A stretch of 64,000 bases of DNA from a phage. Under the pieces are notes generated by a model. That model did no database searches. It was not told where the DNA came from and saw only the letters and a list, made by a program, of their open reading frames with translations. A program made the translations under genes and the position numbers. Below are positions 2,329 through 21,889 of the stretch, piece by piece. Every line of letters begins with the position of its first letter. The first letter of the stretch is position 1. Where the stretch lies: NCBI GenBank assembly GCA_022897995.1, contig GCA_022897995.1_4763.1. One strand, written 5' to 3'.

Positions 2329-2832
2329 ATGCAATTTACACCAGAAGAACTTAACATCATTGATGAAGTGATGAACTCTAAAGAAAATATCGATATGTCG
2401 ATCCTTAATGGATTGATTGAAAAGACTGAGCGGTTAGTGCATCATGAAGCCTTGTATCGCGGTGTGAGCAAAAGAGAAGGCCGTAAGCTGGATACCTTAA
2501 TTGTAGGTGATTCTTTCGTTGTAGAGCGTCCTATGAGCTTTACGCCACTGCAATCAACAGCAGAGGACTTTGCAACCGATGTTTATGCAACAGGAAAGAT
2601 TATTGCAATAAAACCTACCAAGCCTTGCATGAATTATTACGAACATGCTATTGACCGAGTGGTGTCTAAAGAGTATGACAATCCGACTACTCGACTGTCT
2701 TTGTATGCTATGTTGGCAGATGAGCGCGAGTGCATATACAAGACAGGGACGACCATGATCCTTGATGAGATCGAGGAAGTTTACGCGTGTAACGGCGATC
2801 TGATAGAGATTTACAAATTTTCTTTAATTTAA
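2329..2832 (+). CDS. Putative ADP-ribosyltransferase (ModA/ModB-like)
   Basis: 167 aa; candidate R-S-ExE triad (LYRG, SFT/QST, ERE); sits where modA/modB lie in T4 (between 56 and dda). Confidence 0.45.
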   Translation: MQFTPEELNIIDEVMNSKENIDMSILNGLIEKTERLVHHEALYRGVSKREGRKLDTLIVGDSFVVERPMSFTPLQSTAEDFATDVYATGKIIAIKPTKPCMNYYEHAIDRVVSKEYDNPTTRLSLYAMLADERECIYKTGTTMILDEIEEVYACNGDLIEIYKFSLI

Positions 2833-2835
2833 GTG

Positions 2836-2893
2836 TTGACAGCACAAACCAGATAGACAATAATACACACATACCAACTAAGGAGAATCAATT
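2836..2893 (+). promoter_or_regulatory. Early promoter cassette (TTGACA -35, ATAATA -10, conserved leader and RBS)
   Basis: TTGACA at 2836-2841; leader cacacataccaactaaggagaatcaatt shared with other cassettes; no stem-loop in this copy. Confidence 0.5.
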
Positions 2894-3649
2894 ATGAAAC
2901 TGTTTGCTTTTAAATCTAACGAAGAATTGGCGCTGGTTGTTTTCCGGCTGAACTCTATCATGGCTGGTGCTTCACGTCGCAACAAAGACTTCTCTATGAG
3001 CTTAGTCACTGTGCGTAACATTTACCGTCAGACTCATTGCGCCTATTCCGGTGAGGCTTTCGGTGAAGGTGATGATGGACTCTCCTTAGAGCGCATTGAT
3101 TGCAATCTAGGATATGTTGATGGCAATGTAATTCCGGTTAAACTGAAATACAATTCTTTCCGTGGCAATCACACTATCGAATCTCTTAAAGAGATCCAGG
3201 AACTAGGAACTAACGGTAAACTTTCTGATGATGAAATTGCCCTACGTGCGAAGTACATCGAGTGGATCGAACTTAACGAGAATCGCATCAAAAATCAGGA
3301 AATAGCAATCGAAGAAAAGAAGTTAGCAATCGAGCGCCACAAAAAGCACAACGAACCGGAGAAAGCAGAGGCAGCCGAGCGAGCGATTAAAAATACTCTC
3401 TTCCGTATGGAAGAACGTTATCAGAAAATTGCAGATCTCAAGCAAGCCCTTAGCGAAATCAACAAGAAAGAAGAAAAACTTAAGGCTATTGCAAACAATA
3501 CCGAAATCGTGCTAAAATATACCAGCGTTTTGATTGAATCTCTTTCTAAGTATGAGAACTTAACGCCAGCACAAAAAGAACGCGTGAAATACGGGCTTCC
3601 GATTGATGCGTCGTGGATTGAATTGATGAAAGCGAAGGTAGGTTTATAA
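2894..3649 (+). CDS. Hypothetical protein with coiled-coil C-terminal half
   Basis: 251 aa ORF with RBS AAGGAG; N-terminal SLERID...GNVIPV...NSFRGNH weakly His-Me-finger-like; K/E-rich C-terminal half. Confidence 0.4.
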   Translation: MKLFAFKSNEELALVVFRLNSIMAGASRRNKDFSMSLVTVRNIYRQTHCAYSGEAFGEGDDGLSLERIDCNLGYVDGNVIPVKLKYNSFRGNHTIESLKEIQELGTNGKLSDDEIALRAKYIEWIELNENRIKNQEIAIEEKKLAIERHKKHNEPEKAEAAERAIKNTLFRMEERYQKIADLKQALSEINKKEEKLKAIANNTEIVLKYTSVLIESLSKYENLTPAQKERVKYGLPIDASWIELMKAKVGL

Positions 3650-12133: not shown

Positions 12134-13126
12134 ATGACTAAAGCAAAAATCACCGTCTCTGACCGTAACGTTCAATGCCTGGATTCTGAAAAACAAATCA
12201 AACTGGCTAAACAGTGGGGCGAAGGTAAGTTTACTACCCGCGAAGCACTTGCGGCAGCATTTGGGGTATCTCGTCGTACTGCCTCCCGTGTATTACTGAT
12301 TCAGAAAGACGCAGTAGCGGAAGGTCGCAAGGCACTAGAAAAACGTAAAGCACGCCGTAAAACCAGTAAAGGAAAAGGCGGTGAACGCGCAAAAAAGCCC
12401 GTGACTACTTCCTCAAAAATCGTAGCAATAGCCTCAACTAAGTTTATTACTATTACATGTGGTGACATTGTTTATACTGCTGATCCGTCGCATGTTAACT
12501 TTAATGAAGCACTGGAAGCGATTAAACATAATGATTTCATCAAAGCTATTACGCTGATTGACATTAAGAAAGCGGTTGAAGTATATTATCACGGCGCTTT
12601 CCGTATCGAAAATGGTATTGTGTATTATCATAATATTGTTCTTGATAATAATCTGACTCGTCGAGTTGTGGAGTCGATTAAAGAGAATAAGCCATATACG
12701 CACTATCTGAACTTCTTTGAGAAGTGCAAGAAAAACCCTAGCCGTAAGGCCGTAGATCGTCTATTTGACTTCTTAGAGCACAACGACATTGAGATCGGGG
12801 AAGATGGTTGTTTCTATGCATGGAAACGTGTTGATGTTGATTATAAAGATTTCTTTACGCATACGTTTGATAATAGCCCAGGTCGCACGGTTAAAATGAA
12901 GCGTAAAGACGTGGACCCAGATGATGATCGCACTTGCTCTAATGGCCTCCACGTTGCAGCGAAACACTATATTCCGCACTATGGCGGTGGACGAGGCCGA
13001 ATCATTAAATGTAAAGTTGATCCGCGTCACGTTGTAAGTATCCCGAAAGATTATGCGAATGCCAAAATGCGCTGTCATCGTTACTATGTGGTTGAAGATG
13101 TAACCGAAGGTTTTAGCCATTACTAA
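12134..13126 (+). CDS. rIIB: rIIB protein
   Basis: C-terminal blocks AVDRLFDFLEHNDIEIGEDGCFYAWK, HTFDNSPGRTVKM, CSNGLHVA, YYVVEDVTEGFSHY match T4 rIIB as recalled; start ambiguous (ATG 12125 or 12134). Confidence 0.85.
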   Translation: MTKAKITVSDRNVQCLDSEKQIKLAKQWGEGKFTTREALAAAFGVSRRTASRVLLIQKDAVAEGRKALEKRKARRKTSKGKGGERAKKPVTTSSKIVAIASTKFITITCGDIVYTADPSHVNFNEALEAIKHNDFIKAITLIDIKKAVEVYYHGAFRIENGIVYYHNIVLDNNLTRRVVESIKENKPYTHYLNFFEKCKKNPSRKAVDRLFDFLEHNDIEIGEDGCFYAWKRVDVDYKDFFTHTFDNSPGRTVKMKRKDVDPDDDRTCSNGLHVAAKHYIPHYGGGRGRIIKCKVDPRHVVSIPKDYANAKMRCHRYYVVEDVTEGFSHY

Positions 13127-16696: not shown

Positions 16697-16758
16697 TTGA
16701 CGTAAAGAAATGGGAGTAGTATTATACTCCCACACCGAAACGAAAGAAGGAGAATCAC
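16697..16758 (+). promoter_or_regulatory. PeSL-like promoter cassette
   Basis: TTGACG 16697-16702; GGGAGTA/TACTCCC 7 bp stem (16712-16731) with TATTAT -10 in the loop; conserved leader. Confidence 0.55.
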
Positions 16759-16971
16759 ATGAAATCTATTGAGCAAGTAGTAACAGAATTTATGAGCTAC
16801 GAAGGAAACCGCATCTTTGGACGTTCTCAAGTTCGCGAGATCGTAGAAGAAGTTGCGGGAGAGTTTGCGGAATCTGGTCACGTTATCACGCAAGAACGTA
16901 AAGAAGAAGCAGTAAGCCAGATCATGGCTATGCAGAAAATGCGTATTAATGCACGAGCGGGTAAAAATTAA
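16759..16971 (+). CDS. Hypothetical protein
   Basis: 70 aa ORF downstream of cassette. Confidence 0.35.
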   Translation: MKSIEQVVTEFMSYEGNRIFGRSQVREIVEEVAGEFAESGHVITQERKEEAVSQIMAMQKMRINARAGKN

Positions 16972-16978
16972 AAAGTAG

Positions 16979-17041
16979 TTGACACCGGATTATGGGAGTA
17001 GTAAGATACTCCCATCAAGACAAAACATTGAGGAATATATT
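16979..17041 (+). promoter_or_regulatory. PeSL-like promoter cassette
   Basis: TTGACA 16979-16984; GGGAGTA/TACTCCC stem 16994-17013 with TAAGAT in loop. Confidence 0.55.
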
Positions 17042-17842
17042 ATGAAAAACATTATCGCTGCTATCGTTCTTTCTGCTACTGCTTTCGGTGCTAATGCTGC
17101 GTCCTTTGATTGCGCTAAAGCTACTACCAAATCAGAGAAGTTTATTTGTGCTAATGAGTCAATCTCCGCACTGGATTCGAAACTTCATGAAGTATATGTT
17201 AAAGCTGTTAAGATTGATCCGTCTCTGAAACAAGAGCAACGCAACTGGAATAAAACTGTTCGTGATACAATGATCAATATCGGGCAGATTCAGCCACTGG
17301 AGGCTGTATATAACGCTCAAATCCAAAACTTGATGAATGTATTACCTAAAGAAGAAACCTCGTCAGAAAGCGATTCAGAGACTTCTGTGAAGGTTGAAGA
17401 AGAACAACCGAAACAGGAAGAAAAAGTGGTGGAAGAACAGAAGAAAGAAGAAAAAATCTCTGGATCTATCACTTACCAGTGCATTGCAAAATTTACATGG
17501 AAAATCATTGATGGTATTGAAACAGACAGCCGCAAAGATCCATTGTATGGAAACTCTACTTATGGCAACAAGGGCGGAAAGCTGAAAATGACCATGACCG
17601 AAGGTGAATTGTCTTCTTTCGTATATGTTGATGAGCGCGAAGTGTTTAAATCAAATCTGACACGCAGCAAACAATATAAAAATATGGTTGTTGGTATGAG
17701 CAAACCGGATGTAGCAGGATACTTCAACGAGTACAAAATGTGGGTAGGGGAAAACGATGAAATCCGCTTTGAAGTCATCGAGAAAGGTCGCATTAGCTAT
17801 GATTATGGTACTCAATATGTTTGCGAATATAAGAAGGGTTAA
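17042..17842 (+). CDS. Secreted protein with LprI/DUF1311-like N-terminal domain
   Basis: 266 aa from ATG 17042; signal peptide MKNIIAAIVLSATAFGANA; CAKATT..EKFICANESISALDSKL...QRNW pattern; acidic linker then C-terminal domain. Confidence 0.5.
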   Translation: MKNIIAAIVLSATAFGANAASFDCAKATTKSEKFICANESISALDSKLHEVYVKAVKIDPSLKQEQRNWNKTVRDTMINIGQIQPLEAVYNAQIQNLMNVLPKEETSSESDSETSVKVEEEQPKQEEKVVEEQKKEEKISGSITYQCIAKFTWKIIDGIETDSRKDPLYGNSTYGNKGGKLKMTMTEGELSSFVYVDEREVFKSNLTRSKQYKNMVVGMSKPDVAGYFNEYKMWVGENDEIRFEVIEKGRISYDYGTQYVCEYKKG

Positions 17843-18124
17843 ATGATGAAATTTAACAACATGAAGTTTAAAAAAGATTGGTGGGATGCTATGAGAGCTA
17901 ACGACCGAATCGGAATTGGAAAGGCAGAAAAGACAGTTGTTATTGTCAAGTATAAAGCGACGCAAGATCTTTTGATTAAGGAACTCATTCGAGCGGGTAA
18001 CTATCAAACACCGGAAGGTCTTATTGACATGATGGTTGATAACATGTATAGTGACGAACCACCAAACATTAAACAATATTACAAGCAGTATTACCGAAAG
18101 TGGCAGAAGTATAACCGAAAATAG
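17843..18124 (+). CDS. Hypothetical protein
   Basis: 93 aa ORF immediately after preceding stop. Confidence 0.35.
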   Translation: MMKFNNMKFKKDWWDAMRANDRIGIGKAEKTVVIVKYKATQDLLIKELIRAGNYQTPEGLIDMMVDNMYSDEPPNIKQYYKQYYRKWQKYNRK

Positions 18125-19529: not shown

Positions 19530-19836
19530 TATTAAAACCGATGAAGAAATGCAGGATATTGCAAAGGAATTAACCACCATCATGATCCGTCGCGGATCGT
19601 ATAATGCAAAAACCATTATCGATGAAGTCAATACAGCGGTTAAGGCAATCGAGAAAGTAAAGTCAGACGTTGCATTTGAAAGATACACATGGGAAGATAT
19701 TCGCAATCGAAGCCGCTATAATTTCTTTGTTGATTGTATTATGTCAATGACTGAACACTACGGGCATAGCATGAACGACATTATCATCGATGCGCGTAAA
19801 TTAGCAGAGAATGTTTACGGGAAGTTTCCAGAATGA
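19522..19836 (+). CDS. Hypothetical protein (paralog of 19075-19407)
   Basis: 104 aa from ATG 19522; shared C-terminal motif with upstream paralog. Confidence 0.35.
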   Translation: MSDIKTDEEMQDIAKELTTIMIRRGSYNAKTIIDEVNTAVKAIEKVKSDVAFERYTWEDIRNRSRYNFFVDCIMSMTEHYGHSMNDIIIDARKLAENVYGKFPE

Positions 19837-20081
19837 GATTAGAGCAAGCGATTGTTTATTTTGAGATGGGTTATGATATTGCTCGTGTAGAATGGGAAGA
19901 TGGTGATTTTGTACGATTGATCGATCTTCCAGAAACAGCTATTGCACTGGTCAAAGTAGAAAACGGCATACAACGCAATTACGCGTTTTCTGACGAAGAC
20001 AAACAAGCCGATGACTGGTACGCTACCTGTTTTCATCATACAGCGTCAAAATGTGATTCAGGGGCTTCTATGCGCCAATAA
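19833..20081 (+). CDS. Hypothetical protein
   Basis: 82 aa ORF, ATGA overlap with previous gene. Confidence 0.35.
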   Translation: MRLEQAIVYFEMGYDIARVEWEDGDFVRLIDLPETAIALVKVENGIQRNYAFSDEDKQADDWYATCFHHTASKCDSGASMRQ

Positions 20082-21109: not shown

Positions 21110-21889
21110 CTAAACAGCCGGTCCGTAAATAGCTCCGCGATTTATCCACGTTGGAGCAGACCCTATAACAGCATAACCAGCACCGCCGCCGTTATATTCT
21201 GTGCCGGTACCGTGAGTATTACATCTACCTCCTGCGGAGCCAACTTCGCCGCCATTCCCGCCTGTATATGCACTAAGAGACCCCTCACCGACAGATCCTG
21301 CACCCGGAGCGTAAATGGAGCCAGCGGTTGCACCAGAACTCATATGAGAGGAAGACCCGCCACCACCGAATGGGCGACCACCGCCACCACCAAATACTAG
21401 TCTACCCCTGTTACCGCCGCCACCGCCGCCACCGCCGCCAGCGATAGCACCGCCATTATTAATTCTTAGCCTCCCACCAATATCATTTTGAATACAATGA
21501 CCCCCAGATGAGCCAGGACTATTACTACCGCCATTACCGCCACGACCATACATCGTTACGCCGTGTATATTTAACTGAACATATTCATTTGGTGTATCCC
21601 CGTACATGAAGAATAAAGGAACATCTTTAGAATATGATACTAAATCACCTGTAATATTAAACACTATAGGTGTACTACCTGCCTCAAAGCATCTATCACG
21701 GAACCACTGACCATTGAAGTTATGGTCTGCTCCAAGTGTATGAATAATTTCTCGCGAGCGACCTGCAAATTGACTCATCCAGCAAGGAACACCCAATCTT
21801 AGTTGACCAGCCGCTTGACTCATCCACCGTTGTCCTGTTTCATTTGCGGCTGAACTTCCAATCCAACCGGGAACACCAACTACTGCCAT
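21110..21889 (-). CDS. 38: Long tail fibre adhesin gp38 (T2-type, glycine-rich motifs)
   Basis: 259 aa; several poly-Gly stretches separated by variable segments; directly downstream of gp37. Confidence 0.8.

Follow-up and report, generated by a model that had tools for sequence, protein, structure and literature searches.

Analysis of a 64,000-nucleotide (nt) stretch of phage DNA (contig GCA_022897995.1_4763.1 of the NCBI GenBank assembly GCA_022897995.1; the whole stretch is referred to below as the window) revealed that the gene at 17042..17842 (+ strand, stop included) codes for a predicted secreted protein of 266 amino acids (aa) with two domains, a nearly invariant DUF1311/LprI_N head and a polymorphic C-terminal β-barrel. 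The 3-kb stretch around the gene shared 97.5% DNA identity with Enterobacteria phage GEC-3S and 97.1% with Phi1, both members of Krischvirus (RB49-like, T4-type Straboviridae). At least five barrel classes were found, and copies of the gene occurred both in these virulent phages and in prophages of Escherichia coli. New here are this polymorphism, which resembles that of cassettes, and the movement of the gene between virulent and temperate phages. The DUF1311 resemblance is not new and had been publicly annotated before: a weak DUF1311 match of RB49ORF260c was reported in 2006 (PMC1524935), the RB49 orthologue is named [quoted passage not shown] in UniProt, and the E. coli copies are named “lysozyme inhibitor LprI family protein” in RefSeq. 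Judged from its sequence, the protein resembles an envelope-protection or exclusion factor of variable specificity more than it does a proven lysozyme inhibitor, and it is tentatively proposed as a polymorphic superinfection-exclusion or immunity factor protecting the envelope of the infected or lysogenic cell.

Constant Head and Interchangeable Barrels

Allele identities were measured on eight DNA-backed copies of the gene, in which the N-terminal part (aa 1-105) was 93-100% identical across copies compared to 11-57% for the C-terminal domain between classes. Across the homologues, the sequence was almost invariant from the signal peptide through the DUF1311 domain and over most of the following linker, whereas the C-domain was variable. 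The barrel classes (A1, A2, A3, A4, and B) were all found at one Krischvirus locus, with class A1 in the window, GEC-3S, Phi1, and others (11 GenBank records), class A3 in RB49 and about 45 records, and class A4 in UPWr_E1. The structural model of a type-B protein again displayed helices and eight strands, at lower confidence (predicted local distance difference test, pLDDT, of 60).

Alignment of the window with RB49 and UPWr_E1 DNA displayed 97-100% identity up to about position 17431, inside the linker, about 50% from 17432 to about 18119, and 95-100% again thereafter. The divergent block includes a downstream open reading frame (ORF) of 93 aa (17843..18124, + strand) that starts directly after the stop codon of the gene (TAAATG); the right boundary of the block is at about 18120. 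RB49 and UPWr_E1 have this ORF in common yet their barrels differ (38% identical), so the barrel was exchanged on its own.

Nei-Gojobori estimates for the N-terminal part gave a synonymous divergence (dS) of 0.09-0.28 and a ratio of nonsynonymous to synonymous divergence (dN/dS) of 0-0.2. For the barrel, dS was no lower than 1.1, including within class A1, and dN/dS was 0.1-0.24 for the diverged pairs. The high dS and low ratios indicate that the barrels are long-established, functional lineages joined by recombination to a head that is young or homogenized. Recent hypermutation or diversifying selection of the barrel was rejected since the diverged pairs are under purifying selection and dS is saturated; a single very close pair was near a dN/dS of 1, with 3 synonymous versus 11 nonsynonymous changes, which are too few to interpret.

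Prophage Copies and Distant Relatives

The first 381-414 nt of the gene were present at 94-97% identity in 26 of 5426 complete E. coli genomes. At the five E. coli loci inspected, the gene was the last of a prophage inserted at or in hicB, beside hicA and yncJ, and the prophage barrels belonged to class A2 (12 genomes) or were B-like (6 genomes) or A4-like. Behind the DEC5A copy, 26 codons remain of the gene that lies downstream in Krischvirus (MMQFNSMKITQKWWDAMKANHQNDIN, then a stop; L002, about 12785-12865), indicating capture from a Krischvirus-type genome. As only this remnant is left in the DEC5A prophage, the gene was retained without its neighbor, and the prophage copy is probably a stand-alone cargo gene. 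No effector gene adjoined the gene at any copy examined. The prophage (L002, L014, L016, and L017) carries lambda-type terminase gpA, portal, and capsid genes, and hicB is truncated in three of the four strains. A weak promoter-like site was located 40 nt upstream of the prophage copy and a terminator-like hairpin downstream of it.

More distant relatives, with N-domains about 36-49% identical and different C-termini, were identified in T4-like phages of Klebsiella (Marfa and others) and Aeromonas, as well as in Salmonella SSU5 and a lambda-like phage; in the lambda-like phage, an ea22-like gene is on one side of the gene and xis/int on the other. Klebsiella phage Marfa encodes both a homologue of the T4 spackle protein (Sp) and a homologue of the gene, five genes apart, and Sp and the DUF1311 protein are therefore not mutually exclusive in T4-like phages. 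In Marfa (L003), the spackle homologue is encoded at 144-425. The DUF1311 protein, of 252 aa, has a different C-terminus that is not a barrel and is encoded at 2501-3259, between the primase (61) and dCTPase (56) genes.

Domain Organization and Modeled Fold

The coding sequence (PHROG 14799) has its ATG at 17042 and its stop at 17840-17842, exactly as delimited in an earlier reading made from the letters alone (the sequence-only reading), and the GEC-3S annotation of the homologous coding sequence (BN201_0263) uses an identical start. The first 19 residues (17042..17098, + strand; MKNIIAAIVLSATAFGANA, cleaved before AS) form a canonical Sec signal by sequence features and hydropathy, comprising MK, a 13-residue hydrophobic core (Kyte-Doolittle 11-mer maximum of 2.47), and a signal peptidase I AxA site (ANA before AS). 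The AASFDC junction was invariant even among distant homologues, and residues 1-20 had a pLDDT below 50 in the AlphaFold2 (AF2) model. No lipobox was present, as SFD precedes Cys24 at the ANA/ASFDC junction with no match to [LVI][ASTVI][GAS]C. The mature protein is predicted to be soluble and to reside in the periplasm in vivo.

The DUF1311/LprI_N domain (aa 20-103; 17099..17350, + strand) is nearly invariant in all copies and was modeled as a helical bundle (helices 30-37, 39-58, 62-80, and 83-98) that superposes on PDB 3GI7; it contains Cys24 and Cys36. The motifs from which the domain had been recognized (FDCAKATT, FICANE, LDSKL, and QRNW) were all found, and the family assignment was upheld by a profile search with PF07007 (24.3 bits versus a curated cutoff of 22, E 4.4e-5). 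The match is borderline and places aa 24-76 on profile positions 1-71 of 106; matches above threshold were also obtained for 8 of the 9 relatives scanned (22.4-30 bits). Next comes a disordered linker rich in E, K, S, and Q (aa 104-138; 17351..17455, + strand; pLDDT below 50) with 13 Glu, 1 Asp, and 6 Lys, inside which the left recombination breakpoint falls (about 17432). Its net charge of -8 agrees with the acidic linker of the sequence-only reading, and the second domain proposed there corresponds to aa 139-266 (17456..17839, + strand; allele class A1), modeled by AF2 as eight β-strands with a pLDDT of about 85. Cys147 in the first strand and Cys261 in the last are the cysteines of this domain and probably form a disulfide.

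The modeled barrel is a generic up-and-down, lipocalin-like fold and, by sequence, an orphan family. Foldseek comparison of the C-domain with the PDB retrieved lipocalin/calycin barrels with a best E of 5.4e-3 and a TM score of 0.40 on the target, with no sequence signature, and PDB sequence searches with the C-domain profile and with the family profile gave no match. The C-domain was rejected at the sequence level as an MliC/PliC domain, that is, as a true LprI-type inhibitor, and such an identity had no specific fold-level support either. Neither MliC (PF09864) nor any other Pfam family matched it at E up to 10, and hhalign of the C-domain alignment against an MliC alignment built around verified E. 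coli MliC gave a probability of 1.9%, covering just a short SFVY(D) segment. The SxSGAxY inhibitory loop motif was not seen on reading the C-domain sequences, MliC/PliC were not among the top 50 Foldseek hits in the PDB, and unrelated barrels scored as well as MliC/PliC/PhiA or better in structure comparison (Cap15 8.3, designed barrels 8.1).

When 1.84 billion cluster representatives were searched with a C-domain profile, the only matches were the domain's own cluster and three giant PKD-repeat proteins; NCBIfam gave no match. The PKD-domain proteins (P0022-P0024) were weakly matched at 4-9 repeats each (E 1.6e-6 to 2.5e-4); they were treated as probable motif noise and not as homologues, the match running through a stretch that contains W-x3-DG. 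The DG of this stretch is conserved in every barrel class.

Possible Functions and Partners

As an exclusion or immunity factor, the protein would be made from an early promoter of a virulent phage and exported as a soluble periplasmic protein. A flexible acidic linker of about 35 residues joins its invariant DUF1311 head to a lipocalin-like barrel, which comes in at least five ancient classes exchanged by recombination within the linker. This explanation fits the data best: other DUF1311 proteins (Etsi4 and ScwA, see below) act in the periplasm on cell-wall enzymes or toxins, the deep barrel classes on a constant head are of the kind seen in specificity determinants, and no spackle homologue was detected in this phage type. 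It would bind and neutralize proteins entering the periplasm from outside, candidate targets being the tail or ejection proteins of superinfecting phages and peptidoglycan hydrolases. The DUF1311 head may contact a conserved muramidase-type target or an envelope component, and the barrel allele may set which foreign target is recognized. Retention of the gene by the virulent phage, where it is apparently early, and by the prophage alike is what an exclusion or protection function would predict; the binding partner and the exclusion or protection phenotype are presumed. In a bolder and more doubtful version, the gene would be the founding member of a polymorphic periplasmic exclusion or immunity family, in which a constant DUF1311 head carries interchangeable barrels, each recognizing its own invading phage or toxin protein; frequency-dependent selection would maintain the alleles, and virulent T4-like phages and E. 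coli prophages would exchange them.

The barrel alleles were compared with candidate partners encoded by the phage itself. The gp5 tail lysozyme was at least 98.8% identical in about 60 Krischvirus genomes whichever allele was present, and holin T was at least 97.7% identical whichever the allele. The T2-type gp38 adhesin of the window is common to kvi and FL20, which have an A3 barrel, and absent from GEC-3S, which has an A1 barrel. As the alleles co-varied with none of gp5, holin T, and the gp38 adhesin, three ideas were considered less likely: an arms race against the lysozyme of the phage itself, a partnership in lysis inhibition, and receptor masking. Since the alleles are linked to none of the three, a target outside the phage's own genome is suggested. 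A toxin-immunity pair formed with the 93-aa ORF was also rejected, the ORF not strictly co-varying with the barrel and being dispensable in the prophage.

Several points weigh against an exclusion or immunity factor. The function of every member of this protein family is a prediction from sequence, and the PADLOC-DB defence models gave no match to it at E up to 1. With 24.3 versus 22 bits, the DUF1311 match is borderline, and it is confined to profile positions 1-71 of 106, and the N-domain has two cysteines compared to the four conserved in ScwA and its orthologues (PMC7933661). Direct published evidence of the DUF1311 domain itself inhibiting lysozyme is lacking, and the Salmonella DUF1311 protein ScwA was negative: it gave no protection from lysozyme and instead controls MltD levels (PMC7933661). 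The same study noted that the MliC domain was shown to be sufficient for lysozyme resistance in Mycobacterium tuberculosis LprI and that a lysozyme-resistance role of PF07007 is without experimental support (PMC7933661). A barrel of eight strands and lipocalin-like fold might just as well bind a small ligand. The divergent block also spans the downstream ORF, and ordinary mosaicism of the hyperplastic region could explain part of the pattern.

The sequence-only reading had suggested a functional analogue of spackle, which in its strict form would inhibit the gp5 lysozyme domain of superinfecting Krischvirus and T-even phages and replace a missing Sp. Such an analogue is unlikely, even though some DUF1311 proteins are reported or predicted to confer periplasmic immunity against T6SS effectors that target the cell wall (T6SS, type VI secretion system) and no Sp homologue was detected, either in a PHROG scan of the syntenic 41-61 interval of GEC-3S or by tblastn in the window and the remaining 100 kb of GEC-3S (best E 0.05, inside a helicase gene), the sensitivity of these searches being limited for a protein as short as the 97-aa T4 Sp. 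The protein is, like Sp, predicted to be periplasmic and apparently early, the DUF1311 family is linked to muramidase-type effectors, and the invariant N-domain would fit an invariant gp5. Marfa, however, has both Sp and a homologue of the protein, and a PHROG scan of the protein matched phrog_14799, 4675, and 33858 only and not the spackle family phrog_1586, to which Marfa Sp, used as the positive control, matched at 1.5e-25. A spackle analogue would further leave the polymorphic barrel, which does not track gp5, without a role, and its prophage copies would exclude just a virulent phage type.

Immunity to bacterial or animal cell-wall hydrolases, such as muramidase or amidase effectors of type VI secretion systems (T6SS), bacteriocins, or host lysozyme, would make the gene a fitness cargo and not a phage-versus-phage weapon. 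The DUF1311 protein Etsi4 of enterohaemorrhagic E. coli (EHEC) rescues E. coli from the periplasmic toxin Etse4, and LprI-domain proteins encoded in T6SS islands are predicted orphan immunity proteins adjoining lysozyme-like effectors. The RefSeq label of the E. coli copies and the position of the gene at the end of the prophage, where cargo is typically found, also fit this explanation. It is nevertheless improbable: no effector gene stands beside any copy examined, the benefit to a virulent phage in a single lytic cycle is unclear, ScwA confers no lysozyme protection, and the C-domain has no MliC homology. The sequence-only reading was thus partly supported: the DUF1311 family membership was upheld by hidden Markov model and fold, whereas the lysozyme-inhibitor-like character and the spackle analogy are a hypothesis resting on the family name.

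It is quite improbable that the protein modulates host peptidoglycan enzymes or lysis timing, acting like ScwA on lytic transglycosylases or in lysis inhibition. ScwA is periplasmic, raises MltD levels, and causes lysis on overproduction (PMC7933661), and the holin gene t lies 2.3 kb from the gene; on the other hand, the near-constant holin T, the retention of the gene alone in the prophage, and the five deep allelic classes, which conserved host periplasmic enzymes do not explain, are all at odds with such a role. Capture of a lipid, siderophore, or signal molecule in the periplasm by barrels that differ in ligand is very improbable.

If the barrels do set exclusion or immunity specificity, they would offer a compact and naturally modular means of examining the policing of the periplasm by phages and prophages, and would add a mechanism beside T4 Imm and Sp and the receptor blockers of the T5 Llp and Cor types. 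The polymorphism could also help explain the differing mutual interference of related therapeutic Krischvirus phages in cocktails. The prophage copies offer a clear case of a gene from the predicted early region of a virulent phage captured by a temperate element. For annotation, caution is advised, as the “lysozyme inhibitor LprI family protein” label in RefSeq and UniProt is unsupported for the conserved part of the protein.

Promoter and Genomic Setting

The gene is situated in a hyperplastic early region between the topoisomerase gene 52 on one side and holin t on the other, in the orientation of the early genes, and has no paralogues in the genome. A putative early sigma-70-type promoter (16979..17014, + strand) was identified upstream, with a -35 box TTGACA (16979-16984) and a -10 box TAAGAT (17002-17007) spaced by 17 nt (10 of 12 matches in the promoter scan), and GEC-3S has a promoter annotated at the homologous place. 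On the basis of this TTGACA-17-TAAGAT promoter at 16979-17007, early expression of the gene is predicted, so that the early placement in the sequence-only reading is consistent with promoter and orientation, the timing itself being a prediction. A Shine-Dalgarno sequence, GAGGAA (17031..17036, + strand), was read 5 nt before the ATG.

The promoter overlaps a palindrome, TGGGAGTA-N7-ACTCCCA, at 16993-17014, forming a PeSL-like promoter/stem-loop cassette. Two exact copies of the palindrome were found in the window (16711-16732 and 16993-17014) versus 0.03 expected by chance, and both resemble the PeSL cassettes, composed of a promoter and a stem-loop, that were reported in RB49 and phi1 (PMC2839356). 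Each copy overlaps the -10 box of a TTGAC-type promoter, and the pair flanks a 70-aa ORF at 16759-16971. RB49 and UPWr_E1 possess about 200 bp extra at about 16969, with another small ORF (RB49p263).

The product of the downstream 93-aa ORF shared 51% identity with the RB49 allele and 74% with the L012 allele, and had no family match in Pfam, PADLOC, or NCBIfam; its conserved core is LIxELIxAGNYQTPxGLIDMMV. Further downstream, an 82-aa ORF (19833-20081, + strand) just upstream of holin t matched the Pfam Tad2-like family (Thoeris anti-defence 2, PF11195) with 27.1 bits versus a cutoff of 25 and is a candidate anti-Thoeris gene in a Krischvirus. The holin of the window was 100% identical to that of Krischvirus LF73P4. 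A 259-aa glycine-rich tail-fibre adhesin of the gp38 type is encoded at 21110-21889 (- strand). It shares 95% identity with the adhesin of vB_EcoM_NBG2, a phage listed among mostly T4-/T2-type ones, and 94.6% with the adhesins of Krischvirus kvi and FL20. No gp38-type adhesin gene occupies that position in GEC-3S, which around the gene is otherwise the closest relative. The host-range module of the phage is therefore mosaic, and no single GenBank genome is the best match at all three loci because the holin matches LF73P4 and the adhesin and the gene match others.

Comparison With Known Systems

The phage protein shares with the DUF1311/LprI_N family (Pseudomonas putida PP0307, PDB 3GI7; Etsi4; ScwA) a secretion signal, the C...C ... 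QRxW pattern, and a 3GI7-like modeled fold. It differs in matching about two thirds of the profile, in having two rather than four cysteines, and in the addition of an acidic linker and a polymorphic barrel, in a virulent T4-like phage and behind an apparently early promoter. The domain order of M. tuberculosis LprI is alike, a DUF1311 domain followed by a small eight-stranded β-barrel, and both proteins are exported, by prediction in the case of the phage protein. The phage barrel, however, has neither MliC homology nor SxSGAxY, and in the absence of a lipobox the protein is predicted to be soluble and not a lipoprotein. The MliC/PliC/PhiA inhibitors are likewise set apart by the hhalign probability of 1.9%, the loop motif that was not seen, and the missing place in the Foldseek top 50.

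Similar to T4 Sp (gene 61.3, PHROG 1586), the protein is predicted to be periplasmic, with a Sec signal, and early in a T4-type phage. The two have no sequence relation, the phage protein having two domains and 266 aa, and its high polymorphism contrasts with the strong conservation of Sp among 178 homologues (PMC7677548).

PeSL-mediated shuffling in RB49-type phages (PMC2839356) offers a further parallel, as a PeSL-like element precedes the gene in a hyperplastic region. Compared to such shuffling and to the polymorphic toxins, the left breakpoint lies inside the coding linker and not at the PeSL-like element, no toxin signature is present, and the downstream ORF is not a strictly co-varying partner and is lost in the prophage. 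The organization of the gene nonetheless resembles the conserved-N/variable-C cassettes of polymorphic toxins and tail-fibre adhesins, with a near-identical 5′ part, diverged 3′ alleles, and sharp breakpoints.
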